The notes under the pieces are model-generated. The model saw only the letters and a list, made by a program, of their open reading frames with translations, did not search any database and was not told where the DNA came from. Below, in pieces: positions 9,066 to 57,072 of a DNA stretch of 64,000 bases. Origin of the DNA: Escherichia coli (GTDB taxonomy: Bacteria > Pseudomonadota > Gammaproteobacteria > Enterobacterales > Enterobacteriaceae); the NCBI RefSeq assembly GCF_011045215.1, contig NZ_CP049201.1, one strand, 5' to 3'. Position numbers and translations under genes: made by a program. How positions within the stretch are numbered: position 1 is the first letter of the stretch; each line of letters opens with the position of its first letter.

Positions 9066-9903
9066 CAATACTTTTACCTTATGCTGTCGTAAAAAATGGA
9101 ATCTCATCCGGGACATTTTCCGGTGGATATAAGACAGCCCGGTGTCTGTATTGTTCCTGTCACTTACGATGAGTGCATTTGTAATCAATAAATATCGGGG
9201 GTGACGGTCATCCCGGAACAAATGACTGAAAACGGCGTCAAAGTTACAGGAAAACACCGTTTATCGACACCGGACAAAAGAGCGTTGTCGGTATCCGGCT
9301 CAAAAGCAGGAATAACAATCAGCGTCATGGCGTGGTGAATGCCGGTGCCAGGTAGTCAGCAGGTAATTATTGATGGCAAGACCAAAAGGTGCGTTAAACA
9401 AACGAACCCTGTCAGTGGTGAATATGGTACAGCCCGGTGAGGTAAAATATTTTTCACTTGAACAATTTTTAAAGAACCGGAAACGAACCAAAATGGGGCG
9501 TCGTTCCCGGAAGAACTCATCTCAGACAGAGGGCCAGGAACAAAAACAGTGTGACGGAGTAAAGGACCGGGAGCTTACCGGTAATTCAGCACCGGCAGAA
9601 CAATCTTTATGCCACGTATACTCCGGATGTTCACTTATCAGCGGTCATGGCTGAATACATAGTTGTGCTGGTGATATTGATGATGTTCTGTCATGGGGAT
9701 GGCTGGTGTGTTTTGATAATCCGTAACTTGTATGCCCGCACAGAGCTGTTTCATCTGGTGGATATGACAGTGATGAAATCATGTTGTACCGCTGTTAAAA
9801 ACAGTCGTTCAGTCCTTTATGTTACCCGTTTTGGTAACAATCAGTTGGTCATGGACGTGTGAACCATCTGTGCTTCCATTGAATTTTATGGACTGATAAA
9901 GTT

Positions 9904-10563
9904 TTGTCAGATGAATTTTTATACGGAATTCTTTTCAGTATGCATACACGAATTGATTATCTGGTGAATAAATACAGTTTTACAGAACTGAATGAATCTC
10001 CACGTCTTCGTCGGCAGTGGCAGGATGTTCTGGAGGAGTGCCGGCAGACAGAGGCCGGGCCAGAAGAACGGCTGCGTATTGCACTGCTGAATGTGGATTA
10101 CGTCACCAGTTTTGAGCTGCCTTTTCGCTTGCTGCTTACCCGGACACCACAACTGATTGCCGCGCTGCGTGAAGAATGGGGCATCAGCCAGAAAAATGTG
10201 GTGTTCAACGATAAACGGTTTGGCTGCGTGTACAGCCTGAAGGCCAGCCTTTCGGGTGTGCCGGATACATTCCGGTATCATCTGTCTCACCGTATTCGTC
10301 GCGTGGTTGGGAATGAAAACACATCATTGCCATATCAGCAGGTTGCCCGGGAAGTGAAAGCGTCCCGTGAACGGCTGAAGTATGCGCTGGAAGCAGGTTT
10401 ACTGGTGACCGCACTGGACGGGCTGTTCTGGTCTGGCAGTCAGCGTATTGCGGCTGATGTCCTGAGATTAAGACAGAGCGGAATGCCGGTAGTGACAACG
10501 AATGTGGAGGTGCACGATAACCTGACGGGAACAACCCGCAAAGTGCCGGCATACCATCTCTGA
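9904..10563 (+). CDS. Hypothetical protein (219 aa)
   Basis: Long ORF with host-like codon usage; no recognisable motif. Confidence 0.45.
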   Translation: MSDEFLYGILFSMHTRIDYLVNKYSFTELNESPRLRRQWQDVLEECRQTEAGPEERLRIALLNVDYVTSFELPFRLLLTRTPQLIAALREEWGISQKNVVFNDKRFGCVYSLKASLSGVPDTFRYHLSHRIRRVVGNENTSLPYQQVAREVKASRERLKYALEAGLLVTALDGLFWSGSQRIAADVLRLRQSGMPVVTTNVEVHDNLTGTTRKVPAYHL

Positions 10564-42157: not shown

Positions 42158-43522
42158 ATGACTTCTGAAGTGAAACTGAAAACCGGTGGTGACCCCCGGT
42201 CATTACCGGATTATACTGCCCTACGTGATGAAATCAGCAAACTGACCCACCCGGCACGCCCGGATGTGGACTGGCGTTATGTGGAAACACTCTGCCTGCG
42301 TCTGTATGAACACAATGGCGTGGAATTACAGACGGCATCCTGGTACACCATCGCCCGGATGCATACAGCAGGGTTAAGTGGCCTGAATGAAGGGCTGGCT
42401 CTGATTGTGGCGCTGACCCGGCATCACTGGTCAGTGATGTGGCCGCTGAATACCCACGCCCGGCTGGAAATTATTACCGGTCTGTTCAACCGTCTGCAAA
42501 AAACGCTCCGGGCCATGCCACCGGATAACCGTGACAACCTGCCTCAGCTGTATCAGACCGAAACATTCCTGAAGGTACTGAGTGACATATTTATCCGACA
42601 TGAGCTGAAGCAAAACAGCCGGCTGGTGTTACTGGAAAACATGGTGAAGGGATATATCATTCGTCTGGAGAATCAGCCTTTACAGGGGGATGATTCGTCC
42701 CCGGTAACGCTTCCTGCTCAGGCACTCCGGTCTGATGCACCGGATGTGCAGGAACATCAGACCCTGCCGCACTCCCGTCTGGTGTATATTGTTTCTGAAA
42801 CAAAAGCAGAACCCTCCCCCTCCCTTCAAAAGTCTTCACCCACGTTTCTGAAACCGTTTGTGGCTGGTGTCTGTGCGGCATTGCTGGCTGTCAGCATGGC
42901 CATTCCGGGATGGCAGTTTCTGACACAGCCATCACCGGCGGAGCAGCAACTCAGGGCGCTGCTGACCCCCCCACCGGATGTGCTTTCAGCAGACCAGATG
43001 ACACAGCTCAGCAGAATACCCTCACTGTTAAATCATGTGTCAGAGTGGATACCCCTTTCCGGTCAGCAGATAACGCGACTGACAGAACTACCGCCGGCAT
43101 ACAACCTGCAACGCAGTGCGCAGCTGCTGCAGCAACTGATGGTGCTTTTTCCCGATAATCCCCGTGTCCAGGAAATGGTGGATAACTGGCAGAAGAGTGT
43201 AATGAGCCGTGCGCTCCCGGAAGAGGCGATGACGGGCTGGAACGAAGGTATGACCCGCTTACAGCAGCTGGCTGAGCGCCTGAACCGTCTGGATGAACAG
43301 CGGGGAAAATACATAACGGTCAGTGAACTGAAAACGGAGGTGTTTGGCATCATGCAGGCTTTTAACCGGCATATCCCGGCAGAAGAGCAGTTACGTCGCT
43401 ATGGCGAAGCCCGCAACCAGAATGGCAGTGAACAGCAGCAAAAACAGGCTGAAATGGCGCTGAATCAGTTGATTAACCGTTATCAGATGGAACACACAGG
43501 CAATCAGGAGGGGCAGCCATAA
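42158..43522 (+). CDS. ImpA_N-domain protein (TssA-related, TagA/VasL-like) with internal TM helix
   Basis: 454 aa; N-terminal GGDPRSLPDYTALRDEISKL...PDVDWRYVETLCLRLYEHNGVELQTASWYTIARMHTAGLSGLNEGL matches the ImpA-related N-terminal domain; hydrophobic segment FVAGVCAALLAVSMAIPGW mid-protein. Confidence 0.65.
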   Translation: MTSEVKLKTGGDPRSLPDYTALRDEISKLTHPARPDVDWRYVETLCLRLYEHNGVELQTASWYTIARMHTAGLSGLNEGLALIVALTRHHWSVMWPLNTHARLEIITGLFNRLQKTLRAMPPDNRDNLPQLYQTETFLKVLSDIFIRHELKQNSRLVLLENMVKGYIIRLENQPLQGDDSSPVTLPAQALRSDAPDVQEHQTLPHSRLVYIVSETKAEPSPSLQKSSPTFLKPFVAGVCAALLAVSMAIPGWQFLTQPSPAEQQLRALLTPPPDVLSADQMTQLSRIPSLLNHVSEWIPLSGQQITRLTELPPAYNLQRSAQLLQQLMVLFPDNPRVQEMVDNWQKSVMSRALPEEAMTGWNEGMTRLQQLAERLNRLDEQRGKYITVSELKTEVFGIMQAFNRHIPAEEQLRRYGEARNQNGSEQQQKQAEMALNQLINRYQMEHTGNQEGQP

Positions 43523-43846
43523 TGGCTGATTAGATAGGGTAATGTAAAATAATGCAACAATAACGTTTACACAATAAGGTGTAAGCTGAAATTAACTCGT
43601 TCGTGGAATAACCTAATGAGTAAGGTTCTGCTACTTTGAGTTGGATAAGTTATATAGAACAGCAGTCCTGATAGTCAGAAAGAGTTTTTTCTGGGGTGTA
43701 TTTTTATAGGGTGTTAATCTGGTATTTAATTAAAAGACGGAGTTATTTATACTGACATATCAAATAAATAATTTTTAACGACTTTTCTATTTGGCTGATT
43801 GTTTTGCGTTCTTTTTATAAGGTGTTTTATTTTTAAAGGTTTTTTG

Positions 43847-45662
43847 ATGAGATTACATAGTCTTAAAATAAAAGGATTTAAACGTATCCAAACTGCAAGA
43901 GATAATATTTGGTGATACCACGTTTCTCATTGGTGCTAATAATGCCGGTAAAAGTTCTGTTCTGAAGGCCGTTGAATGGCTGCTTTCAGATAAAAAGAAG
44001 ATGGATATTGACTTTTTTTATTGTGAATCTGATGAATCACGTGAAAATAAAATAGCAACTGAGTCAATTGTACTCGAGGCTGAATTCAGAAATGTACCGG
44101 AAGAGGCATTGCAATGGAGAGGTTTTAGGGGGAGGATATTTGAATATAATGCTGGAAATAGTGGGGAAACGGGAAAGTCTCTGATTTACAGGAAAACATA
44201 TGAACCGGGGAATGATGTTGTTATTGAATTGAAATCTTTTTCAAGAAAATTGAATACACGATTTGAAACCGCAGTCAGAGCATCTGACTTGGTAGAAGCT
44301 GGTGCTGATGCCGAAATCATCACTGAGTATTTTCCAGATCAAGCTAAAAGATTTAATGCAGCTGACAAAGAAAAATTAAAACTCATTGATGAATTATGGG
44401 ATATTTCTGATGATGAAGAAGTTTGGGATAAAAACCCGGGGGGAATTGCAGGTGTTGTGTTATCCCGATTACCTGCTTTTCTATTAATACCAGCAGAATC
44501 AGCTTCTCATGAAATTGACACAAAAGCGGGAGCTTTGCAGAAAACGCTGAATGAACTATTCAAAGATGTTCGTGGCAATTCAGAAAATTATAGAAAGGCC
44601 CAGGAGTCTCTGAATGCGCTTGCGAAGGAATTAGATCCTGCAGATGAAACGTCAGAATTTGGTGTGATGATGGGAGAACTTAACAGTGTATTAAGCGGAG
44701 TTTTTCCAGAGTCAAAGATATATGCTACGGCTGATTTATCTGATCCTGATAATGTTCTCCTACCTTCATTTTCGGTTGAAATGTCGAGTAACATTAAAAC
44801 ATGTGTATCGAATCAAGGAACCGGAATGATTCGAGCAGCTGTATTTGGATTGTTGAGATTTCGGCAGCAATGGCTGAGAAAAAAAGGTAAGGATGATGCT
44901 GCTACCAGAAGTCTTATTATTGGATTTGAAGAACCAGAAATTTATTTACACCCTAGTGCAGCAAACCAGATGAGAGATTTGATTTATGAATTATCAGATG
45001 GACAGTCACAAATAATAGCGACAACACATTCACCTTATTTGATTGATTTGTCGAGAAAACCCCGACAGGTACTTAACCGATTCCATTATGATAATTCACA
45101 TACGACAGTCTACCCGCTCTCAGTGACAGAGAAATTTCTGGCCTTGCAGGATAATGATAAAGATCAGATAAAAATGCTGATTAAGCTGGATGATCATGTA
45201 TCAAGGATCTTTTTTACCCGAAAAGTTGTTGTTGTCGAGGGAGATACAGAGGAAGTCATTATCAAAGAAGCTATCCGCAGAATGCCAAAAGCAATGCGAA
45301 ATAAGTTGCTTGCATCAACAGAGCTGGTTAAAGCACGTGGCAAGGCTGCGATTATCGGCCTGGTGAAGTATCTTAGCGCGCTGGATGTTGATTTTTTTGT
45401 TATCCATGATCGTGATGGCGGAACTCCCGGTGCGGAGATCTTTAATGCGCCGATTGCTGCTGCTGTTGGGGATGCCAGCAAAGTTATCATGCTGGAAGAG
45501 TGTATTGAGGATCTGCTGGGGTACCCAGCTCCAAGTGGTGAAAAACCGTTTAAGGCGTATCAGGAAGCACAGCGCTGGGGAGATAACTGGAATGACGTGC
45601 CTGAACCATTAAGGAGAATACTGACTAGAGCTTTTTCCCCATTTATCGATTTGGCTGAATGA
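43847..45662 (+). pseudogene. OLD-family ATP-dependent endonuclease (ABC-type ATPase plus Toprim), N-terminal frameshift as given
   Basis: ATG at 43847 encodes MRLHSLKIKGFKRIQTARDNI then TGA at 43913; shifting frame at 43908..43913 gives FGDTTFLIGANNAGKSSVLKAVEWLL (Walker A) continuous with the 44001..45662 ORF; downstream TTHSPYLIDLS and Toprim-like VVVVEGDTEE...FFVIHDRDGG. Confidence 0.75.
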
Positions 45663-46077
45663 GCAAAAGGGAAAAACTCTGATAAGTAGAGAGTTGAAGA
45701 TGAGCGCTTGGTGCATTGCCAGCACTCTTTTGATTGAAGATCTTTATTTCAGTGAAAGTGGTGCCTGGTTTGCCTTGCCTAAACGTATCATAAAGTCGGC
45801 ACACCATACCTGATGCTGCTATGCGATGTTCCTGCTGGATGTGATGTCGGAAAGAAAGGCGGAATATTACTGCAATAAGGTAGCAGTCCATATCAGACGC
45901 GGGCCTTTCATGATGAACAGGAGAATAACTTGAGTTGCCGGGAATTGCCGCGGCCATACGACATAATCGGGCCAGAGGAAAACACCAGATGGCCTCAATA
46001 TCTGACATTGTCAGAGACCTTTCGCGGCTCGGCTGGACGGATGAACGCATTGGCACTGAGCGGGGCAAGTGCTAAGG

Positions 46078-46135
46078 CTGAAACAGATTAGCGGGCTGAC
46101 GGGCCTGTTTCAGGAAGAGGATTTCAGCCCGGCAT
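46078..46135 (+). repeat. Diverged copy of the gene tail seen at 1..74 (26-codon fragment)
   Basis: CTGAAACAGATTAGCGGGCTGACGG-CTGTTTCAGGAAGA--ATTTCAG shared with 3..53; reads ...LKQISGLTGLFQEEDFSPA then TAG; in-frame TGA just upstream, so not an intact gene. Confidence 0.5.
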
Positions 46136-46181
46136 AGACGCTTCGCTGATACTGTTATTGTTATTTCAGTGAGTTGATGTT

Positions 46182-46511
46182 TTGAGCAGGAAAAAGAGTA
46201 CCCTGGAAGTTGTGGAAGACAAGGTTGCACAGAAACTGGAGGCTGCAGGTTACTGGCGCAGAGCTTCTGCCCGCTGGTTATTTGTTATGGGCAATTTTGA
46301 ATGTACAGAAGCACAAGGGGAGTGGTTGTTGTTACGCAGGAATTATTGCCTGACGCAGATATCGTCCCCGCCGCTACCTGAAAAGCTGGATATCAGCGAA
46401 GTGGTAAAAGCTGCAGATGCCACGCTGAGGCGAATGGGGATTGCCAGCCCGTCCGGAGAGGTATTCAGAAAAGGTATATTGACCTGTAGATATTCAGATA
46501 ACAGGTATTGA
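46182..46511 (+). CDS. Small regulator-like protein, possibly PerC-family
   Basis: 109 aa; KLEAAGYWRRASARWLFVM...RRNYCL resembles the PerC-family pattern (from recall; low certainty). Confidence 0.4.
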   Translation: MSRKKSTLEVVEDKVAQKLEAAGYWRRASARWLFVMGNFECTEAQGEWLLLRRNYCLTQISSPPLPEKLDISEVVKAADATLRRMGIASPSGEVFRKGILTCRYSDNRY

Positions 46512-47128
46512 TGATGAATAAAGGAAGTATATCAATGACATGGCAGCTTTTATGCGATGAACATGGTTTTACCCGGGAACATTACAGTGAACTGAAGAAA
46601 TTCAGTCCGGAGGTATTACATGAAATTATTGTTGAAATGGCCTGCTGCCATCCATCAACCAGTGTATTGCTCAGGAATAAGTGGCTGACACCGCCGGAGG
46701 ATATTCTGGGGCAGGTTACCCGTGAATACGAACGAAGAATACAGAACTGTCCATCTTTCAGGAGCGAGAAGGAGGTGGAGTCCTGGTTAAATGAACTGTT
46801 TTTTGCTGTGATTGCTCCGCTATACCGTGTTGCTCCCGGACAAACAGAACAGGCTGAATCCTTTATTCTGCAGCTTATTGCGGAGCAGGTTTGGGGACTT
46901 ATTTTAACCAATGATGGTTATTCATGGCATTGTGCCCTTTATGACATGTTATTCTGTCTTGTTTTACGAAACACGAAAGGCCAGCCTGAATATCTGAGAA
47001 AACGAATAACGGAAATAATTAATGAATCTGATATAAGACTGACTGTAGACGAAATTGAATGCCAGATTCAGTATGTTCAGGATAATGAACAAAAGGTGGT
47101 TTTACGTGAGTTGATAAATAATTTGTAA
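46508..47128 (+). CDS. Hypothetical protein (206 aa)
   Basis: ORF overlapping the upstream stop; no recognisable motif. Confidence 0.4.
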   Translation: MMMNKGSISMTWQLLCDEHGFTREHYSELKKFSPEVLHEIIVEMACCHPSTSVLLRNKWLTPPEDILGQVTREYERRIQNCPSFRSEKEVESWLNELFFAVIAPLYRVAPGQTEQAESFILQLIAEQVWGLILTNDGYSWHCALYDMLFCLVLRNTKGQPEYLRKRITEIINESDIRLTVDEIECQIQYVQDNEQKVVLRELINNL

Positions 47129-47168
47129 TGGACGGGGCATACAATAATTCATGTAAGACCATGGAGAA

Positions 47169-47417
47169 ATGAAAGTGAATATGTTCCTTAAGTATCATGA
47201 TGTAATGTCCACCCTGAAAGGCCGACACCAACATTTTGACAGATTATACAGTCAGTATTGTTCGCTTGAACGCCAGATAGCCAGACTTGAAACTGATTTT
47301 GGAGGAGGATATTCCATGAAAGTCGTGATACTCAAACTTGAGAGACTTGATGTGAAACGGGAGTTACAGACGCTTCTTGAAGAAGAAGCAAAACACTTAA
47401 GGCAGGGACTTAAATAA
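47169..47417 (+). CDS. Hypothetical small protein (82 aa)
   Basis: ORF only. Confidence 0.3.
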   Translation: MKVNMFLKYHDVMSTLKGRHQHFDRLYSQYCSLERQIARLETDFGGGYSMKVVILKLERLDVKRELQTLLEEEAKHLRQGLK

Positions 47418-47450
47418 CGTTTTCTTAACAGGAAAAGCGAACTGTTCTTA

Positions 47451-48086
47451 TTGTCGGAGAATGTTATGCGTATTCCATCTTGCAAAGAACCCGGTGAAGG
47501 ACATGTAATACAGGCACTGCGTCAGGCGTATGCCGATAATCCCCGGATATTACCGGGAGACTTATGTGCAAAATTCGACGTATCTGTGTCAACAATGAAA
47601 CGCTGGCTGGCCATGCCAGAGAATGACGTTCAGGCGCTCGTTAATGAAGAAGTGCGGGATATGGCTACTGTTGATGAGGTTATTGAACATTTCTGTCCGA
47701 ACGGACGGGATATACCAGACACGCAGCGTAGATGGCGGCTGTATCAGATTATGCGTGCACTGGAGGACAAGGGCTGGAACAGGATAAAAATTGCCCGTTA
47801 TCTCGGGCTGAATCGGGGGACAGCCCGGTATTATCTTTCAATGTCCGAAGATGAAGTGCAGCGCATCCGGGATATTGCTGAAGGGCGACTGATTATCAAC
47901 GTACGGCGGACAAAAAAACCACTGAAGAAATCAGAACTTCTGGAAATTATTGATGCGCAGAACAAGCTACCAACAATAACACGACCACAGATTTGCGAAG
48001 TTACGGGCCTGAGTATGTCCCGGCTCATGCGGTATCTGGCGTTAAGTCCTGCAGACCGTGAGGCCCTGCTTACTGGTAATAAGTAG
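47451..48086 (+). CDS. Hypothetical DNA-binding protein (HTH-like segments)
   Basis: 211 aa; putative HTH segments CAKFDVSVSTMKRWL and IARYLGLNRGTARYYL. Confidence 0.4.
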   Translation: MSENVMRIPSCKEPGEGHVIQALRQAYADNPRILPGDLCAKFDVSVSTMKRWLAMPENDVQALVNEEVRDMATVDEVIEHFCPNGRDIPDTQRRWRLYQIMRALEDKGWNRIKIARYLGLNRGTARYYLSMSEDEVQRIRDIAEGRLIINVRRTKKPLKKSELLEIIDAQNKLPTITRPQICEVTGLSMSRLMRYLALSPADREALLTGNK

Positions 48087-48306
48087 CCCACAGATGACAA
48101 CCAGTACATTTACAATGTGTGGCGTTTCCGGAGGGTAATGATAAACCGCTTAATCTCCGGAGCGAGAAAACATCACGCTGACCATCTGATATTCATGGGG
48201 TGGGGAAAATCGTGCATTTTGGTTTTGTTAATTTCCGGGAGACAGGGCATTGATTTCCGGGGGAGATTAAACAAATCTTAATCAAAGAAACAGTTGGAGA
48301 TATGTC

Positions 48307-48555
48307 GTGATTTTTTTCATCAAGCTTTTAGTATGTTCCTGTATTTTTTGTGTATCTGCTTATTTTCTTGTCGGTGGAATGGTGTCGTTTATCATATGCA
48401 TTACGACAGGGAATTTTTTAATTCCGGACGGGCAGGTGGTGAGAAGTATTATATGGGGGTGTATTACGGGGGCGGTAATTACATTTATTGTAATGTTTTT
48501 TAATCTGATGGACAGACTCAGTTCCCGTAAAAAAACACGGTCAGATTATGAGTGA
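48307..48555 (+). CDS. Hypothetical small membrane protein
   Basis: 82 aa with two hydrophobic helices; AT-rich. Confidence 0.3.
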   Translation: MIFFIKLLVCSCIFCVSAYFLVGGMVSFIICITTGNFLIPDGQVVRSIIWGCITGAVITFIVMFFNLMDRLSSRKKTRSDYE

Positions 48556-48816
48556 AATTTCCGCTGGTATAACAAACAGGGTTATGGATATTCTCGTTTA
48601 TGTGGAACATTCAGTTTGTATCGGAACTGGTAAGAACCTGACAGTTACATTCCCAATGTTTTATGGGGCTTCGGGGATATATATAATAGTTTATTGATAC
48701 ATGTTCTGTAGTTATACTGCGTATTCCGCTCTATTCGATCACGGATTTGCATCGAAGTCCGATCAGCGATTCGCATACTTTCGATCAACCGGGAACTTAA
48801 CTTTTTCTACCGCTTT

Positions 48817-49572
48817 TTAACTCGTTTTTTCGATGCTTTCCACTACCGGGGGGTTTTTCCTCAGGGACTCTCCCTGAAGGACCAGTCTGTGTGAGTTATG
48901 TACCAGTCTGTCCAGGATGGCATCTGCTGTTGTTGGGTTCTCCATCAGACCATGCCATTTATCTACCGGGAACTGGCTTACCACTATCGTGCTGCTTTGA
49001 CCGTAACGATCTTCTATGAGCTCCAGAAGGTCATTACACTGGGCGTTACTTAACTGTTCCAGCCCCAGATCGTCCAGGATTAGAACCTGTATTTTTTGCA
49101 ACTGTTTCAGATATTTCAGCCAGCTGCCATCAACACGTCCCTGAGCCAGTTGTTCCAGTAATCGCCCGGTTCTACAGTACCGGACGCTGTGTTTCTGTCG
49201 ACATGCCTGTTCGCCCAGCGCATTGGCTATCCAGCTCTTGCCACATCCTGTCGGACCGGTTATCAGCAGGTTTTTCCTGTGGGTTATGTAGTGGCCGTTC
49301 AGCAGTTCCCTCATCTGTTCAGCCCGCAGACCTCTTGAGGCCGGATAGCGCAGCCCTTCCGGTGTTGCCTGATATTTCAGGCCGGCATTTTTTCTCAACC
49401 GTGCCACACGGCTGTTTTCCCTGCTCAGAAGCTCGTCATCAACCAGCAGCGTCAGCCTTTCCTCGAACGACAGTTCGTCGTAGGTCTGAGGCGTTTCCCG
49501 CTGCCGTATCAGGCTCCCGGCCATCGCCGGGAGTTTCAGTTGGGTCAGTTTGTTTAACAGATTATCACTCAT
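48817..49572 (-). CDS. istB: IS21 helper ATPase IstB
   Basis: Start at ATG giving MSDNLLNKLTQ; Walker A GPTGCGKS and Walker B VLILDDLG; the ORF-track N-terminal extension is judged spurious. Confidence 0.85.
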   Translation of the reverse strand: MSDNLLNKLTQLKLPAMAGSLIRQRETPQTYDELSFEERLTLLVDDELLSRENSRVARLRKNAGLKYQATPEGLRYPASRGLRAEQMRELLNGHYITHRKNLLITGPTGCGKSWIANALGEQACRQKHSVRYCRTGRLLEQLAQGRVDGSWLKYLKQLQKIQVLILDDLGLEQLSNAQCNDLLELIEDRYGQSSTIVVSQFPVDKWHGLMENPTTADAILDRLVHNSHRLVLQGESLRKNPPVVESIEKTS

Positions 49573-49588
49573 TCGGTTGTTCCTTCTG

Positions 49589-51235
49589 TCAGTGGTAGTA
49601 GCCAGGACCACGCAGGTTTTCATGCTCTGAAGCATATGCCGGATGTTGTTCGCCCTGGCGGGATAACGGAAGCTCAACGTTATCCCGATGATGACGCAGC
49701 AGATTGTCGATAAAGCGTCTGTCCGGGGCGTTATAGTGCAGGGCAACGTAACAGGCCTTTTCCAGCCGTTCCGGGCCGTATTTTTTCTGAAGTGCCAGCA
49801 GACCCAGGACTGCACGGTAAGCCAGCTCCGGATGGGGTTTGGCTTTCAGCATGGATTCAACCACCCGGCCTGTGGACGGACCTGTACGGTTTCCCTGCTC
49901 GATAAGGCGTTCCGGTGTCCATGTCCCATGCCGCCGGTGGCGTTCTGGCATGTGAAGCGGATTGGTTGTGTGTTTATATTCATGTGTGCTGCGCGGATGT
50001 TGCGCCACACACTGCCCCTTGTGCCAGAGTTGTACCACCGACTGCCCCGCCTTCAGTGACAGACGCTGACCGACCAGTTCGTGTGGAACGGAGTACCAGT
50101 GACGGGCATATTCAACGTGATAGTCAGGGCCAACCTTCACGGCTTTGTATTCCGTGTATTCATAAGGTGCCAGAGGCAGCGGAGAGAGTGCTGGCGCATC
50201 CAGTATGCGGAAGCGTTCTGCACGGGTTTGATTGCCGTACCCCTTCATTGGCCGGTTATTCATGTCTGTCAGTAACTCCCGAAGGCGCGCATTCAGCGCC
50301 CTGAGCGTGTGGAAGGTTTCATTACGGATGCGGGCAAGAAGCCATCGTTCGACGATGAGGACGCCGTTTTCTGCTTTTGGTTTATCTTTAGGTTTGCGTG
50401 GTCGGGCCGGGATAATAACCGTGCCATAGTGCTCAGCCAGCGCCTGATAACTGTCGTTGATGACAGGCTCATAGCGATCGGCTTTTTTCACTGCGCTTCT
50501 GAGGTTATCGGGGATGAGCAGCTTCGGTACGCCGCCCAGGAAGGTCAGGCAACGGCTGTGGGCATTTAACCATGACATCATGTCCTGACCTTCGCACGCT
50601 TCAACATAGGTATAGTTGGACGCCCCCATTACAGCCACGAAGATTGCCACGCGGCGTATCTCTCCGGTGTCCGGATTAATAACAGGGACCGTAGGACCAC
50701 AGAAGTCGATAAAGAGCTTTTCGCCAGCACGATGCTCCTGTCGCATGGAGAGGCGTCGCGTTTTTTTCCACTTCCGGTAGCAACGGCAGAAGTGTGAGTA
50801 TCCCATCGCTTTGTCACCCGCCTGTGCCTTGTATTCCATCCACAACAGTTGGCGCGTCACGCCAGGTTTTCTCATTTCCGTATCGAAGTACAGCATGTCA
50901 GGCATAACAAGCTCCGACGCAGAGGTGTCTTTGGGCGGGTAAATGAGTTTCTCCAGCGTGTCATGGGATATATCAGCAGGTAATGGCCATGACAGAGAAG
51001 AGGCTTTGAAGCGTGCAAGAACCTCAAAAACGGTTGAGGCGCTGATGTGTAATGTCAGCCCGATACAACGGTTAGTCAGCTTCTGGTCGAACTTGAGCTG
51101 AAGGATCTTAAAACAGGTTTCCATAGTGCTCCTGGATTTTCTCTTTCTGGACATTGCCGTCTCCATTGGTTTAAACACGGCAATGAAGACTGTGGCGAAA
51201 AGAGTTAATTCCCGGAGTGACTGGCAGGATGCCAA
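49589..51235 (-). CDS. istA: IS21 transposase IstA
   Basis: 548-aa ORF upstream of and adjacent to istB; start codon uncertain within the first 40 codons. Confidence 0.85.
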   Translation of the reverse strand: MASCQSLRELTLFATVFIAVFKPMETAMSRKRKSRSTMETCFKILQLKFDQKLTNRCIGLTLHISASTVFEVLARFKASSLSWPLPADISHDTLEKLIYPPKDTSASELVMPDMLYFDTEMRKPGVTRQLLWMEYKAQAGDKAMGYSHFCRCYRKWKKTRRLSMRQEHRAGEKLFIDFCGPTVPVINPDTGEIRRVAIFVAVMGASNYTYVEACEGQDMMSWLNAHSRCLTFLGGVPKLLIPDNLRSAVKKADRYEPVINDSYQALAEHYGTVIIPARPRKPKDKPKAENGVLIVERWLLARIRNETFHTLRALNARLRELLTDMNNRPMKGYGNQTRAERFRILDAPALSPLPLAPYEYTEYKAVKVGPDYHVEYARHWYSVPHELVGQRLSLKAGQSVVQLWHKGQCVAQHPRSTHEYKHTTNPLHMPERHRRHGTWTPERLIEQGNRTGPSTGRVVESMLKAKPHPELAYRAVLGLLALQKKYGPERLEKACYVALHYNAPDRRFIDNLLRHHRDNVELPLSRQGEQHPAYASEHENLRGPGYYH

Positions 51236-51327
51236 TCAATGATCGGAAGCGTGCCAAATCGTGATCGATTGTGATGCCAAACTGTGATCGGAGATGGATG
51301 CCAAATCATGATCGATTCGAATGCCAA

Positions 51328-52817
51328 CATACCCTTACCCACAAGTTTTCTGGGCTATTTCTATGGCATTAATTGACAGCATTAATTGTGTTAATCCTGA
51401 CCATATAGTCTTAGGGCCTGGAGGCGAATCATTTTTTCTTGCCAGATATCCTCCTAATCTTGCAAGCATTAAAACCGCCGTTCTTATATTCGGTATGTTT
51501 TCAGGTGGAGGCGTATTCTCTACCAATATCCAGAGATACTCATATTCTTTCTTTTCGAAAATTAAATCACAGGGTTCCTCCGGAACCATTTTATACAATG
51601 AGCTAAGATAAAGTATTCTCCATGAGATTATAAGGTATAAGGCCAGACAGTTCCTTGTGCGTTCAAATGTCTCAAGTTGTAATTTCTCAACCTGACATCC
51701 GCTTTTTAATACCTTAAAGAAAACTTCAATCTGCCAGCGTAATAAATACCATTGAATAAGCTGTGCGGGTTCCGTCAGCTTTTCTGGAGGTACACTACTC
51801 ATTAGCCACCATACTAATGGCTGGACACTTTCTGGAGCATTTATTTCCTTTGCAAGTAATACAGTTACCGTTACCGGAGAACAACGTAACTTTCCTCTTC
51901 GACCGGTGGGTGGATGTAGCGTCAACCTTGCTAAGCGTAGCTCCTGCTGGACTTTGCGGGAAGGTTGTCCTCGTCCTTCCGGAAGGGTAAACTCAATTAT
52001 CTGCTGTGGCAAAATCTGCATCATTTTTTCATTCAGGAGTAATGAGTCTCTTTTTCCTGATGAATTCAGTATAGCCCGGTTAATGCTCTTCATTCTTACG
52101 AGCCAGTCAGCCTTTATCCCACTTTCATTTTCTGCACTCTCAAAGAGGTCGTAAATATCACCTTCACGGTCTGAAACAGAAATTATCTGGGTATCAGGAC
52201 AGGACCTAGCCAGTTCTGTTGCTTTTTTATATCCTTCTATCCACCGTCCTGTTTCTTTCTCACTGATATGTTTCCTGTGAAGTGAATCATTAGTTATTTC
52301 TTTACGACTTTGTTTCTGAGTTTTGAGTTCTTTTCTGAACCATTGATAATCATCATAAACCCCTAAGCAAATACCTGAATCACTTATAACCAATTGAGGG
52401 TGAATAAACAAATCTCGCTCATTTTCATGTCGTCTGGGACCGACGCCCTGTTTCTTTTTTTGACCAGAATAATTTAGTTCAGTCGTATCCTGTAAAACCA
52501 GAGCCCGTTTAAACTGTTTAGTCCTTTCGATGATATTTTTCTTATGGGGAGCCATGATTTTATCGGCTGAAATTTTATCACTGGAAAAGCAACGATAAGC
52601 AGCTTTTGTCTCACTCCAGGTACGGCAGGATACGGGAATACTTTCCTTTGGTGAACGGCTAAGCACACTGAGAACGTGCTTTATTCGCTTTTCGAGCCTG
52701 ATATCACCAACATTCAGAGATTCCAGCTCCTTAATAACCCAGTTTTCCATAGTTCCTCTAAATTATGGTTAATTTATCAACAGAATAACATCACTCGGAT
52801 TTATGGGTAAGGATATG
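51328..52817 (-). mobile_element. IS4-family (IS50-like) insertion sequence, copy B
   Basis: Inverted duplicate of 440..1929 with the same 14-bp terminal repeats and the same 9-bp flanking repeat (GAATGCCAA on this strand at 51319..51327 and 52818..52826). Confidence 0.75.
51335..52750 (-). CDS. IS4-family transposase (identical to 507..1922)
   Basis: Identical 471-aa translation to the copy at 507..1922. Confidence 0.85.
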   Translation of the reverse strand: MENWVIKELESLNVGDIRLEKRIKHVLSVLSRSPKESIPVSCRTWSETKAAYRCFSSDKISADKIMAPHKKNIIERTKQFKRALVLQDTTELNYSGQKKKQGVGPRRHENERDLFIHPQLVISDSGICLGVYDDYQWFRKELKTQKQSRKEITNDSLHRKHISEKETGRWIEGYKKATELARSCPDTQIISVSDREGDIYDLFESAENESGIKADWLVRMKSINRAILNSSGKRDSLLLNEKMMQILPQQIIEFTLPEGRGQPSRKVQQELRLARLTLHPPTGRRGKLRCSPVTVTVLLAKEINAPESVQPLVWWLMSSVPPEKLTEPAQLIQWYLLRWQIEVFFKVLKSGCQVEKLQLETFERTRNCLALYLIISWRILYLSSLYKMVPEEPCDLIFEKKEYEYLWILVENTPPPENIPNIRTAVLMLARLGGYLARKNDSPPGPKTIWSGLTQLMLSINAIEIAQKTCG

Positions 52818-53658
52818 GAATGCCAAACCGTGATCGATTCAGATGCCATTTTGCAGTTATACACTATTGAGTATTATATTGTTATGAAAATATCTGTACT
52901 TATGGAATATTTAATTCTGATGATGGGGCTCTGGTTTGTTGTATGGTTAATTACGGACTGGTTACCTCATATCTGACGGAAAGTGGTATCAGTGTGTATT
53001 CGCATTGACCGGACATCGACATATAACGAATTACGTTCCGGACAAAACTCTCCTGCAGGAAAGGGTAACATTGTATTTTAAACATATTATTCAACCAGTC
53101 ATAAGCATAAACCGACCGCCGTATGTAGCCATTAAGCCAGTATTGGTAACGAAGATACCCACCTTTTCAAAAAGGAAGTGGATAAAAGATAACGAAAATG
53201 CGAAGAGTTGATTAATACATTGAAACAAAATTCATTAATGATGAACTTGGAGAAAAGCTCCATCAAAATACGACACGACCTGTCGTAATTTGTGTTAGCC
53301 AGGAAAGAATATCTACTACTCACTAAAATGATTTAGTGCTGAAAATATTTACAAGCCAATAAATTGACTGGTATTACGGAGTAACGCCCAGGCTATGTTA
53401 ACGAACCCGCTGTTTTATTGGCTCAAAAAACATATCCCAGAGATGTTCAGCCATACCCTCGTTAGTGAGCAAGGTATCCCCTTAGTAGCCAGGGCTGAAG
53501 ATGCCCATTGATGGGCGAAAACCAAGGATCTGGCCGTTAGAACAGTTATGTCGTTAAACACATCACCACCATATGCCATCCGGTTCACTTCGTCGGCCAA
53601 ATTAGTGTGATATTCTTTCCAGAAATGCTGTTGTATCCACGACATAAGGCGATGATTG

Positions 53659-56600
53659 ATGGAGCAGTCTCTCAATTTTGAAATGTTGCGCAGCCAGTGG
53701 CCGGAACTGGCTGAACTCGCGTGTATGGCGGAACGCTATGTTCACTCCGATCCGGAAAGCTGTCTGGTCAAGCTGCGCAACTACACCGAATTGATGGTGC
53801 GCTGGTTGTATCGTCAGGAGCGGTTGCCGGAAGGTATTAAGGCTAATCTTTACGATTTAATGAATGCTGATGTCTTTACCAGCATGATGCCGGAAGCCAT
53901 CATCATGAAAATGGATGCGCTGCGTATCCATGGCAACCGTGCCGCGCACGGCGGACATATCAAAGCTAAAGATACTTACTGGCTGCTCAAAGAAGCGTAT
54001 TTGTTGGGAATTTGGCTGTATGTTCGCTACGCCCACGGTAATGTTGATGACTGCCCCAAATTTACACTCCCTCCATTAACACAATCTTCAGGTCGTGCAG
54101 ATGAAAAACGTCTGGAAGATGCAATCAGGGCTCAGGATGAAAGCCGTGAGCGCGAACTGGCGCTGCAACGCGCACTACAGCAAGAACAGGAAAAGGCCGA
54201 ACACCTCACTCAACGCCTGAATGAAGCCAGAGCGCGTAACCAGCATGTTGCCGATATTCTCTCTATTGATGAAGCGGAAACCCGCCGTCGCCTGATTGAC
54301 TCTCGCCTGCTTGCTGCTGACTGGAATGTAGGCGAAGACCTTAAAAATACCGATCAGGTTACGCAGGAACATCCCGTTAAAGAACAACCTACCGCGACCG
54401 GAGACGGTTATGCGGACTATGTCTTGTGGGATGAGGCACACAAACCGCTGGCGGTGGTGGAAGCAAAAAAAACCAGCGTCAATGCCGAGCAAGGACGAAT
54501 TCAGGCCCGGCTGTATGCAGACTGGCTGGAAAAAGAATACGGCCAGCGTCCGATCATCTTCTACACCAACGGCTATGATATCTGGCTGTGGGATGACCAT
54601 AAAACTCATGGTTATCCCCCGCGTCGGGTGTTTGGCTTCTACAGCAAGGAAAGCCTGCAATATCTTATTCAACAGCGTGAAACCCGTCTGCCGCTGAACA
54701 ATGTGCTGCACGTAAAGGATAACGAAGGTAAGGCCGTTGCCGGACGTTTGTACCAGCTTGAAACCATTGCTCGTGTCAGCGAACGGTTTACCAATAAATA
54801 TCGTCAGTCATTAATCGTTCAGGCCACCGGCACCGGTAAAACCCGTGTAGCGATTACACTGAGCAAACTGATGATAGATGCCCGCTGGGTAAAACGCGTC
54901 CTGTTTCTTTGTGACCGCAAGGAATTACGTAAACAGGCGGCGAATGCCTTTAATCAATTCACCAATGAGCCGCTGTATGTAGTTGGAAAATCGAAAAAAG
55001 CAGACAGGCAGAACGCCAGGATCTACATCGCCACCTATCCAGGCATGATGAAAATCATGGACCATTTCGATGTCGGTTATTTCGATTTGATCATCGCCGA
55101 TGAATCCCACCGCTCTATCTACAACGTCTACGGCGATCTGTTTAAGTATTTTGATGCCCTCCAGATTGGCCTGACGGCCACGCCGATTGACATGGTAAGT
55201 AAAACCACTTTCGGCCTGTTTGGTTGTGAAGGACGTATTCCTACCGCCAACTACAGCCTGGAAGATGCCATCGCCGATAACAATCTGGTTCCCTATGAGG
55301 TTGTCACGCACACCACAGAATTCCTGCGGGAAGGCATCAAACGGGAGAAATTAAGCGACGCACAAATCCGCGAGCTGGAAGAACAAGGCATAGATCCCAA
55401 TACGCTGGAGTTTGATGGCAAGGTGCTGGATGAGGCGATCTACAACAAAGACACCAACCGCTATATCCTGCGTAACCTGATGGAAAATGGCCTGAAAGAT
55501 CGGGACGGCCAGTTGCCAGGTAAAACCATCATTTTCGCCCGTAACCACAAACACGCGCTGCTGTTGAATGAATTGTTCGACGATATGTACCCACAGTTTG
55601 CCGGGCGCTTCTGCTAGGTCATCGACAATTACGATCCCCGTGCCGAGCAACTGATTGATGATTTTAAAGGGCTGGATGAAAGCACCAACAAAGAGCTGAC
55701 CATCGCTATCTCCGTTGACATGCTCGATACCGGTATTGATGTCCCGGAAATTGTGAATCTGGTCTTTGCCAAACCGGTCAAATCAAAAGTGAAGTTCTGG
55801 CAGATGATTGGCCGTGGTACGCGCCTCTGTCCGGGGTTGTACGGTTACGACGATAACGGCAAGCCGCTGGATAAACAGAAATTCCGCATTTTCGATCACT
55901 GGGGCAATTTTGAGTATCACGAACTGCATACCGAAGAGGCCGAAGTCACAGCGACAAAATCGCTTGCACAAAAACGCTTCGAAGCGTGGGTTATGCTGGG
56001 GGCCGCTGCGCAACGTAAATTCGACAAACAGGCGGTGGATTTAGTTGCTCACCAGCTTCGCGAGCAAATCAACGCACTGGATGAAAAGTCGATTGCCGTA
56101 CAGGAAAAGTGGCAGCAAAAAGCGCAGTACAGTGATGCAAAGGTGCTGCGCCAGCTTTCTCCGAAAACACAGCAGGATCTGCTATCTGTTCTGGCCCCGC
56201 TGATGCAGTGGCTGGACGTACGCGGGCAAAGCGATGCCATACGCTTTGATATGGATATTCTGGCGGCGCAAACTGCCCGTTATACCAACCCGGAAGAGCT
56301 GGATGTGCTCTGGCCGGTCATCGTCGAAAAAGTGGAGCGCCTGCCGTCGCATTTGGCGCAGGTGCAACAGCAGGGACAGCGAATCAATCAGCTTCGTGAT
56401 TTGGGCTGGTGGAAGCAAGCCAGTCTGGAAGAGCTGGAGGATATCCGCATTCATTTGCGCGGTATCATGCACCTGATGGAAAAAGACGCGACGCCGAAAT
56501 TTGGTTCTATACAGGTGGATATTACCGAAGATGCGAACCTGATCCAGACGGAAACCCGCAAAACCAACATTCGCTCGATTGATTTCAAACTCTATCGCCA

Positions 56601-57072
56601 GCAGGTTCAGGGGGCACTGGAGCCGCTGTTCCAGCAAAATCCGGTGCTGAAGAAAATCCGCAACGGCGAGCCAGTCACGCAAAACGAGCTGGATGAACTG
56701 GCGAAGCTGGTGCTGATCCAGAACCCCAACGTTGATATCCGGGCACTGAAAGAGTTCTATCCGCAGGCAACCGCCAGCCTGGATAAACTTTTGCGTACCA
56801 TCATCGGGATGGACAGCGACGCGGTGGAAGTGCGCTTTGCTCAGTTCGCCGCTGATAACAGTCTGACCAGCCAACAACTGCGCTTCCTGTCATTGCTGAA
56901 AAACCACATTCGCGATTACGGCACCATTGAAATGCGGCAGCTCTTTGAACAGCCTTTTACGCATATCCACAACGAAGGCGTTACCGGTGTGTTCCCTGAT
57001 ATAGAGCAGATCGCCCGCCTGCAAAAGATAGTCGAAGAGCTGGGTGTTGTGACCGACGTAGCGACGGTATAA
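53659..57072 (+). pseudogene. hsdR: Type I restriction enzyme R subunit HsdR, interrupted by an in-frame TAG at 55615..55617
   Basis: ORFs 53656..55617 and 55720..57072 are in the same frame and the codons between them read on as HsdR (VIDNYDPRAEQLIDDFKGLDE...); helicase motifs QATGTGKT (Walker A), DESH, FWQMIGRGTRL present; likely a CAG to TAG change. Confidence 0.8.

Follow-up and report, generated by a model that had tools for sequence, protein, structure and literature searches.

This analysis dealt with four small genes in a 64,000-nt stretch of Escherichia coli DNA (contig NZ_CP049201.1, assembly GCF_011045215.1; the whole stretch is called the window below), which stand next to a type VI secretion system (T6SS) in an island that also carries defence genes. 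A sequence-only reading of the window had treated them as a single set of regulators, comprising a PerC-like activator and a helix-turn-helix (HTH) protein. On balance, however, the four genes appear to be two separate leftovers lying side by side in an eroding defence/T6SS island. The first piece, genes 1 and 2, would be the 3' end of an ibrA-ibrB-pchD-ECs1389 module, in which the regulator and its partner have been left intact and the enzyme-like genes survive as fragments. The second piece, genes 3 and 4, would be the head of a rare block, made up of gene 3, gene 4 and an open reading frame (ORF) of 82 amino acids (aa), that lies upstream of a type I restriction-modification (R-M) system.

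The principal evidence is the pattern of DNA homology. Islands with ibrAB that are common in E. coli, including that of O157 strain EDL933, match the window over positions 45742-47120 only, and this similarity stops at the end of gene 2. Homology to ten contigs that carry gene 4 (L006-L015) starts at 46105 and continues, at 97-98% identity, through genes 3 and 4 to 48717. All ten have a 146-bp deletion that skips 46460-46604 and fuses the 3' end of the PerC gene (gene 1) to gene 2; in the PerC segment their identity to the window falls to about 90%, against 97-98% elsewhere, and a recombination joint is therefore indicated. Homology resumes at 52849 and runs into hsdR-hsdM-hsdS, so the gap from 48718 to 52848, which holds a block of IS21 and IS4 (IS, insertion sequence), represents an insertion; the block is absent from the ten contigs and also from E. 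coli C5. Among 5,426 complete E. coli genomes, genes 3 and 4 were present in one, and the whole of 45600-48300 was matched by one only, that of C5. The breakpoints at 46105 and 47120, together with the deletion shared by the ten contigs, thus divide the four genes into two juxtaposed pieces, and the notion of a single regulator set had to be given up.

The physical arrangement of the locus was as the sequence-only reading had described it, with four small same-strand genes between an OLD gene and IS21. The four plus-strand ORFs occupy 46182-46511, 46508-47128, 47169-47417 and 47451-48086, and the RefSeq annotation of C5, which has 98.4% DNA identity over 45600-48300, gives the same four coding sequences. 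On one side is an OLD-family gene (44001-45662; PADLOC Old, 170 bits; Pfam AAA_15 and an OLD-like TOPRIM), and on the other an IS21 element, with istB at 48817-49815 and istA at 49589-51235. All four ORFs are unbroken in both the window and C5. The features of the locus are as follows:

46212..46511, + strand: gene 1, PerC family, PchD type by sequence, 99 aa (Pfam PF06069; identity to the O157 gene)
46508-47128 (ORF), + strand: gene 2, predicted stand-alone DUF6880-type N-terminal domain (profile-profile comparison)
47175..47417, + strand: gene 3, small helical protein of 78-80 aa resembling DUF465/YdcH (Pfam DUF465; PDB 1ZHC)
47466..48086, + strand: gene 4, 206 aa, three tandem four-helix HTH modules, a near-orphan (HTH_23, HTH_8)
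45742..45897, + strand: ibrA (PAPS-reductase/DUF3440) pseudogene fragment, residues 288-339 of 410 (tblastn)
45944..46146, + strand: ibrB (ParB-like) pseudogene fragment, residues 141-212 of 212, with a frameshift at about 46066 (tblastn)
48125..48264, + strand: cluster of four direct motifs resembling TYTCCGGRG, speculatively an operator array (repeat scan)
48307..48555, + strand: hydrophobic ORF of 82 aa after gene 4, in the same conserved block (gene call in 4 of 10 related contigs)

The PerC gene most likely starts at GTG 46212, giving 99 aa, since the Pfam match opens at residue 11 of the 109-aa ORF, which is open from TTG 46182, and the C5 coding sequence is 300 nt long. Gene 2 likely starts at ATG 46511 or 46514, on the TGA of the PerC gene, with ATG 46537, after AAGGAAG, as an alternative. 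The likely starts of gene 3 are GTG 47175 or ATG 47181. For gene 4 it is probably ATG 47466, which has GGAG 8 nt upstream and gives 206 aa, the length of the corresponding database cluster (P0001). The island has a G+C content of 43-47% and contains IS elements. A phage origin received no support: neither the DNA of the region nor the gene 4 protein matched any of 50,697 phage records, and the PHROG matches were to generic PerC and HTH families. The only notable feature in a DNA repeat scan of 43400-49000 was the short motif cluster, and the sole match in an RNA family search of 45500-53700 was a sub-threshold AfaR.

The PerC gene, gene 2 and the ibrAB remnants

The assignment of the first gene to the PerC family, which had been offered only tentatively for the 109-aa protein, proved sound: a Pfam search gave a nearly full-length match to PF06069 (112 bits against a cut-off of 22.6, E 1.6e-32, profile positions 2-87 of 90). 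PerC proteins are expected to have about 85-105 aa and to be encoded on horizontally acquired DNA, and gene 1, with 99 aa (109 from TTG) and its position on such DNA, agrees with this. Its closest counterpart for comparison is the PerC gene that O157 EDL933 carries next to ibrAB and cah, with 88% identity over 88 residues. The EDL933 copy sits between a HecB-like gene and cah, with ibrA, ibrB and a gene 2 homologue as neighbours, and the gene order matches that of ECs1382 to ECs1396 in the Sakai strain, where the PerC gene ECs1388 was named pchD (PMC1890555). Given this identity, an ibrB fragment upstream and a gene 2 homologue (ECs1389-like) downstream, gene 1 is, to judge from sequence and gene order, the orthologue of PchD (ECs1388), a group 2 PerC homologue. 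Compared with alleles that diverge by 7-14% in DNA, its ratio of nonsynonymous to synonymous substitution rates (dN/dS) was 0.18-0.23. The PerC protein had no relative of solved structure in PDB.

PchD of O157:H7 (SpLE1 / O-islands 43 and 48) and the window protein share the same upstream and downstream neighbours and a full-length Pfam PerC match. They differ in that PchD is found in a tellurite/cah island, whereas the window gene is in a T6SS/defence island with a degraded ibrAB, and in that the C-terminus of the window protein is divergent and 10 residues longer. PerC of enteropathogenic E. coli (EPEC; pEAF perABC) and PchA/B/C of enterohaemorrhagic E. coli belong to the same Pfam family, have about 90-100 aa and are likewise encoded on horizontally acquired DNA, but these are group 1 proteins, activators of LEE1/ler (LEE, locus of enterocyte effacement) that relieve H-NS silencing, and the window gene belongs to group 2. 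There was no LEE visible in the window, and no EPEC pEAF perC could be identified among the 40 of 95 plasmid tblastn matches listed (E ≤ 1e-3). PchA binds to DNA, and its displacement of H-NS/StpA/Hha complexes leads to the activation of LEE1 (PMC4764244); group 2 Pch proteins were reportedly dispensable for ler/espA expression and adherence (PMC6265319). By analogy with PchA, the window PerC would bind AT-rich, H-NS-silenced, horizontally acquired DNA and relieve the silencing; going by PchD, its targets would not include the LEE.

The intact module consists of ibrA (3'-phosphoadenosine-5'-phosphosulfate (PAPS) reductase plus DUF3440), ibrB (ParB-like), the PerC gene and the gene 2 homologue, in that order, tightly packed and on the same strand. 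The region was matched in 2,044 of the 5,426 complete genomes, over 45600-47120 only, and the annotated features beneath these matches were IbrB-like, PAPS reductase, PerC and hypothetical proteins; thousands of genomes have PerC and gene 2 in undamaged form. IbrA and IbrB are said to have been described by Sandt et al. in 2002 as immunoglobulin-binding regulators of E. coli ECOR-9, and nothing on IbrAB together with PerC turned up in the literature collection searched.

The window does not have an intact ibrAB, which is reduced to about 400 bp of fragments. O157 IbrA matched the window fragment by tblastn at 69% identity (E 7e-19), and ibrB was recovered as two pieces in different frames, each with 85% identity. 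The RefSeq annotation of C5 has a PAPS reductase pseudogene at the same place as the ibrA fragment, and on the ibrB remnant an 'IbrB-like domain-containing protein, frameshifted, missing N-terminus'. The likeness to the IbrAB module thus lies in PerC and gene 2, the conserved downstream genes of ibrA-ibrB in chromosomal islands, and in the ibr fragments directly upstream of them. The difference is that ibrA and ibrB are not functional in the window: ibrA has lost about 860 nt at its 5' end, a further stretch of about 550 nt is gone across the junction of ibrA and ibrB, and a frameshift disrupts ibrB.

Searches for membership in defence systems covered the four proteins, IbrA/IbrB and their neighbours; apart from the marginal PADLOC matches of genes 2 and 4, they returned nothing but a weak resemblance of IbrA to BrxP and to DndC, of the PAPS-reductase type. 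From this comes the idea, put forward on sequence similarity, that the whole ibrA-ibrB-PerC-gene 2 module might be a DNA-modification or defence system. Intact modules in two other contigs (L004, 4280-10397; L018, 5471-11008) are preceded by an OLD-type nuclease and a 214-aa protein, or by a 722-aa AAA protein. A paralogous relationship between gene 2 and the 214-aa gene upstream of ibrA was considered and discarded, as the two have no similarity.

Gene 2 had no Pfam match at E ≤ 1, and no NCBIfam or PADLOC family, a marginal fragment of prokaryotic Argonaute (pAgo) in PADLOC aside. In a search of 5.8 billion proteins its homologues were essentially all from Escherichia, and an exhaustive profile search of 1.84 billion representatives returned 39 proteins only. 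A scan of 100,044 species genomes gave three loci, namely a likely contaminant (78%), a Pantoea gene (34%) and one weak match. The homologue in contig L004 has 79% identity. In an alignment with 13 homologues of 56-97% identity there were 59 invariant positions, including an LLRNKWLT core, and the motif L(R/K)NKWLTxP persisted once more distant relatives were included. Against alleles of the same 7-14% divergence as for gene 1, dN/dS was 0.32-0.42.

Proteins of about 460 aa that match DUF6880 (PF21810) in their C-terminal parts were also reached by the gene 2 profile, over roughly their first 150 residues, and an hhalign comparison of gene 2 with the N-termini of the DUF6880 proteins gave a probability of 98.4% (E 4e-15). 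Together these results argue that gene 2 is a stand-alone version of the N-terminal domain of DUF6880 proteins. The link is indirect, by way of the 460-aa proteins, there being no direct match of gene 2 to the DUF6880 Pfam model. No paper on DUF6880 was found in the literature collection searched. One such protein, of 464 aa and with an N-terminal domain homologous to gene 2, adjoins a type I R-M operon in an unrelated genome (L016, 6001-7395).

The association of the PerC gene with gene 2 is recurrent. Their stop and start codons overlap in the window, and both genes are under purifying selection by dN/dS. In two metagenome contigs (L020/L021) the pair is reversed, with a relative of gene 2 (43%) directly upstream of a PerC gene (54%; 89.6 bits in Pfam), a 4-nt overlap between them and a PRiA4_ORF3 gene preceding the pair. 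The surroundings of that cluster (5374-10274) include a 1,953-aa DUF4011 helicase upstream, and downstream genes for AHSA1, a YejK-like nucleoid-associated protein (NA37) and a RelA/SpoT-domain protein. We infer that the gene 2 product may be a helical protein partner or modulator of PerC, translationally coupled to it. The stronger proposal, that a PchD-type PerC and gene 2 form an unrecognised two-protein regulatory module in which PerC activity requires the helical partner or is gated by it, is tentative, and we think it unlikely.

Genes 3 and 4 and the block upstream of hsdR

Gene 3 is a borderline member of the DUF465/YdcH family as judged by profile scores. It aligns with the full profile of Pfam DUF465 (PF04325, positions 1-48 of 48), is of the same length as family members, and aligns end to end with HP1242 (PDB 1ZHC, E 9e-4), but it differs from the family in scoring just below the cut-off (22.2-22.4 bits against 25); NCBIfam PRK11415 gave 46.5 bits against a cut-off of 91. 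Relatives of gene 3 with 78-81% identity scored 24.6-28.2 bits with DUF465, and a plasmid-borne copy 26.0. That copy is a DUF465 gene beside ParE on the IncF plasmid pABW_A19b (L029). A plasmid-like E. coli contig (L027), with ParM/StbA and ParE/RelB genes, also has a DUF465 locus, to which gene 3 and the first 72 nt of gene 4 show 84% DNA identity. Nothing on the function of DUF465/YdcH was found in the literature collection searched.

Gene 4 had been described as a 211-aa protein with two HTH-like segments. Its HTH character was upheld; the protein is likely shorter, at 206 aa, and there are three modules. The central one matches HTH_23 (PF13384; 32.6 bits, cut-off 24.6, residues 93-129 of the 211-aa translation) and HTH_8 (25.8 bits, cut-off 22), and there were weaker HTH matches on modules 1 and 3. 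The modules, of four helices each, cover approximately residues 11-63, 85-138 and 155-203 of the 206 aa. Module 1 aligned with module 3 by BLASTP at E 7e-5, the three segments align mutually, and the secondary structure predicted by AlphaFold2 shows the same four-helix pattern three times. Gene 4 would therefore seem to encode a multi-HTH DNA-binding protein.

In the likeness of its second module, which passes the cut-offs, it recalls proteins with tandem homeodomain-like HTH domains (HTH_23; transposase N-termini, CENP-B, paired domains), and there were weak matches to the N-termini of IS21 and IS481 transposases. It differs from such proteins in having three modules, no catalytic domain and no significant PDB match: a Foldseek search of PDB with the gene 4 model (predicted local distance difference test score, pLDDT, 65.6) gave no match at E ≤ 0.001, and phmmer against PDB gave nothing useful. 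No transposase remnant was detected downstream of gene 4.

Gene 4 is a near-orphan. Its homologues among the 5.8 billion proteins formed one real cluster, of 64 identical or near-identical sequences from 49 contigs. A second 'cluster', with 81% identity, is probably the product of a pair of compensating frameshifts, because its DNA is 98.2% identical. At greater distance a single relative was found (33% identity, E 1e-8), a 223-aa protein of the E. coli plasmid pSTEC648_2, the record of which also contains phage-type genes.

The window has 8 exact occurrences of the pattern TYTCCGGRG where 1.35 would be expected; three of them, with one near-copy, fall in 48125-48264, so that four copies lie within 140 bp between gene 4 and the 82-aa ORF. 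Both the motif cluster and this ORF, which is strongly hydrophobic and had no Pfam match, are conserved with genes 3 and 4 in the related contigs. Gene 4 would most likely act locally, and one may speculate that it does so on the repeated motifs just downstream. More weakly, one might see in the triple-HTH protein, the repeated motifs and the 82-aa membrane ORF a small effector cassette of a new kind, regulated and carried by defence islands.

Island decay and competing explanations

The surroundings of the four genes show extensive damage. The OLD gene (43847-45662) has a frameshift near 43900, with residues 1-18 of the C5 orthologue in another frame, and its first in-frame start, at 44001, comes only after the Walker A motif (GANNAGKS); from the sequence it is likely a pseudogene, or else the frameshift is a sequencing error. 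The hsdR gene (53656-57072; 1,137 aa in relatives) is interrupted by an in-frame TAG at 55615-55617, leaving ORFs of 653 and 450 aa. Two IS4-family transposase genes, 507-1922 (+ strand) and 51335-52750 (- strand), have 100% protein identity in inverted orientation and bracket the T6SS, OLD, the four genes and IS21; such a pair could possibly serve as a substrate for inversion or behave as a composite element. In C5 (L001, 1-9063) the end of the T6SS (ImpA_N/VasL fragments) and a segment with a '3'-5' exonuclease' and an AAA ATPase are tandemly duplicated upstream of OLD. In the ten gene 4 contigs the upstream place that OLD and the ibrAB remnants have in the window is taken by a NERD-helicase gene.

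Such damage invites the explanation that the four ORFs are functionless relics of recombination, open only because too little time has elapsed. The broken neighbours (the OLD frameshift, ibrAB fragments, the hsdR TAG and the inserted IS21 and IS4) are consistent with this, as is the deletion across PerC and gene 2 in all ten other gene 4 contigs, and selection on gene 4 was not measurable because it has no divergent homologues. We nevertheless regard it as unlikely: PerC and gene 2 have dN/dS values of 0.18-0.42 across alleles and occur undamaged in thousands of genomes, neither the window nor C5 has a break in any of the four ORFs, and gene 4 is identical or almost identical in its 64 sequences from 49 contigs. 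A different possibility is that genes 3 and 4 and the 82-aa membrane ORF are a control or accessory cassette of the type I R-M/defence block, or a self-contained HTH-regulated membrane-effector module, in either case unrelated to PerC. The order gene 3, gene 4, (82-aa ORF), hsdR-hsdM-hsdS was indeed found in all ten contigs and in C5, as one haplotype with 97-99% identity, and the four repeated motifs between gene 4 and the ORF would suit such a cassette. However, the same hsdR (97%) is present in about 408 other complete genomes that lack genes 3 and 4, with homology from 53102 only, and an obligate linkage of these genes to the type I R-M system was rejected for this reason. With 206 aa, three HTH modules and a distance of 1.4 kb to the downstream hsdR (in contigs that lack the IS insertion), gene 4 is also not a small single-HTH controller (C) protein, and that role was likewise rejected. 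The 82-aa ORF belongs to no family, and PADLOC-DB 2.0, searched with the four proteins, was silent except for a 16-residue match of a gene 4 HTH to mad1 and the marginal pAgo fragment in gene 2. This explanation therefore seems distinctly unlikely.

Regulation across to the adjacent T6SS or the surrounding defence genes, by PerC, the HTH proteins or both, was what the sequence-only reading had raised as a possibility for an island-borne regulator cassette. The set does follow directly on the last T6SS gene (TssA/VasL, 42158-43522), among defence genes, and has the same position in many E. coli genomes; moreover, PerC and PchABC are activators of a secretion-system island, and the loci on which PchA acts include many acquired ones bound by H-NS (PMC4764244, PMC6265319). 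Nevertheless, the invariant neighbour of PerC is ibrAB and not a T6SS. In O157 the PerC-gene 2 pair is in the cah/tellurite island, with no T6SS in the approximately 20 kb examined, and on F-type plasmids ibrAB-PerC stands beside K88 fimbrial genes, again with no T6SS in about 17-20 kb. PerC and gene 2 are disrupted in all ten contigs with genes 3 and 4, where the TssA/VasL end is still called, and genes 3 and 4 themselves are found in only 1 of 5,426 complete genomes. According to a review (PMC6730261), Fur reportedly controls the sci-1 type T6SS that enteroaggregative E. coli carries on pheU islands, and PMC3145626 names overlapping DNA methylation as a further control of sci-1. Cross-regulation thus appears very improbable, and a link of any of the four genes to the T6SS is unsupported.

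Several points weigh against the preferred reading, that of two separate leftovers, or against the functions suggested for them. With the OLD frameshift, the hsdR nonsense codon and the IS insertions around them, the four genes could also be on their way out. The count of promoter-like and terminator-like sites in 45500-48900 was not above that of shuffled sequence. PchD had little effect in LEE, curli and biofilm assays, and its function was called elusive (PMC6265319); another member of the PerC family, encoded on a phage-inducible island (PICI), is a repressor of LEE1 and not an activator (PMC11773190). For both reasons the extrapolation from PchA is weak. F-type plasmids carry ibrAB-PerC without gene 2, the Pantoea gene resembling gene 2 had no obvious PerC neighbour by eye, its surroundings not having been family-scanned, and no PerC was called beside three other distant relatives of gene 2, so that gene 2 is not an obligate partner of PerC.

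Implications for PchD and for island regulators

The region is an ordinary island-regulator mosaic, composed of what sequence identifies as a PchD orthologue, its partner, a borderline DUF465 protein and an orphan triple-HTH protein. Its importance is modest: a PerC-family gene in a defence island has been placed as the orthologue of PchD, the triple-HTH protein and the gene 2 family are narrowly distributed, and the recurrent pairing of PerC with gene 2 is only mildly new. What looked like a neat four-gene 'regulator cassette' is a recombination mosaic, and this counsels caution in deducing T6SS cross-regulation from adjacency. PchD usually travels with an ECs1389-like partner gene and ibrAB, which provides a concrete reason to retest PchD together with its partner. 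If PerC activity does depend on gene 2, this would explain why PchD expressed alone has had no clear phenotype.

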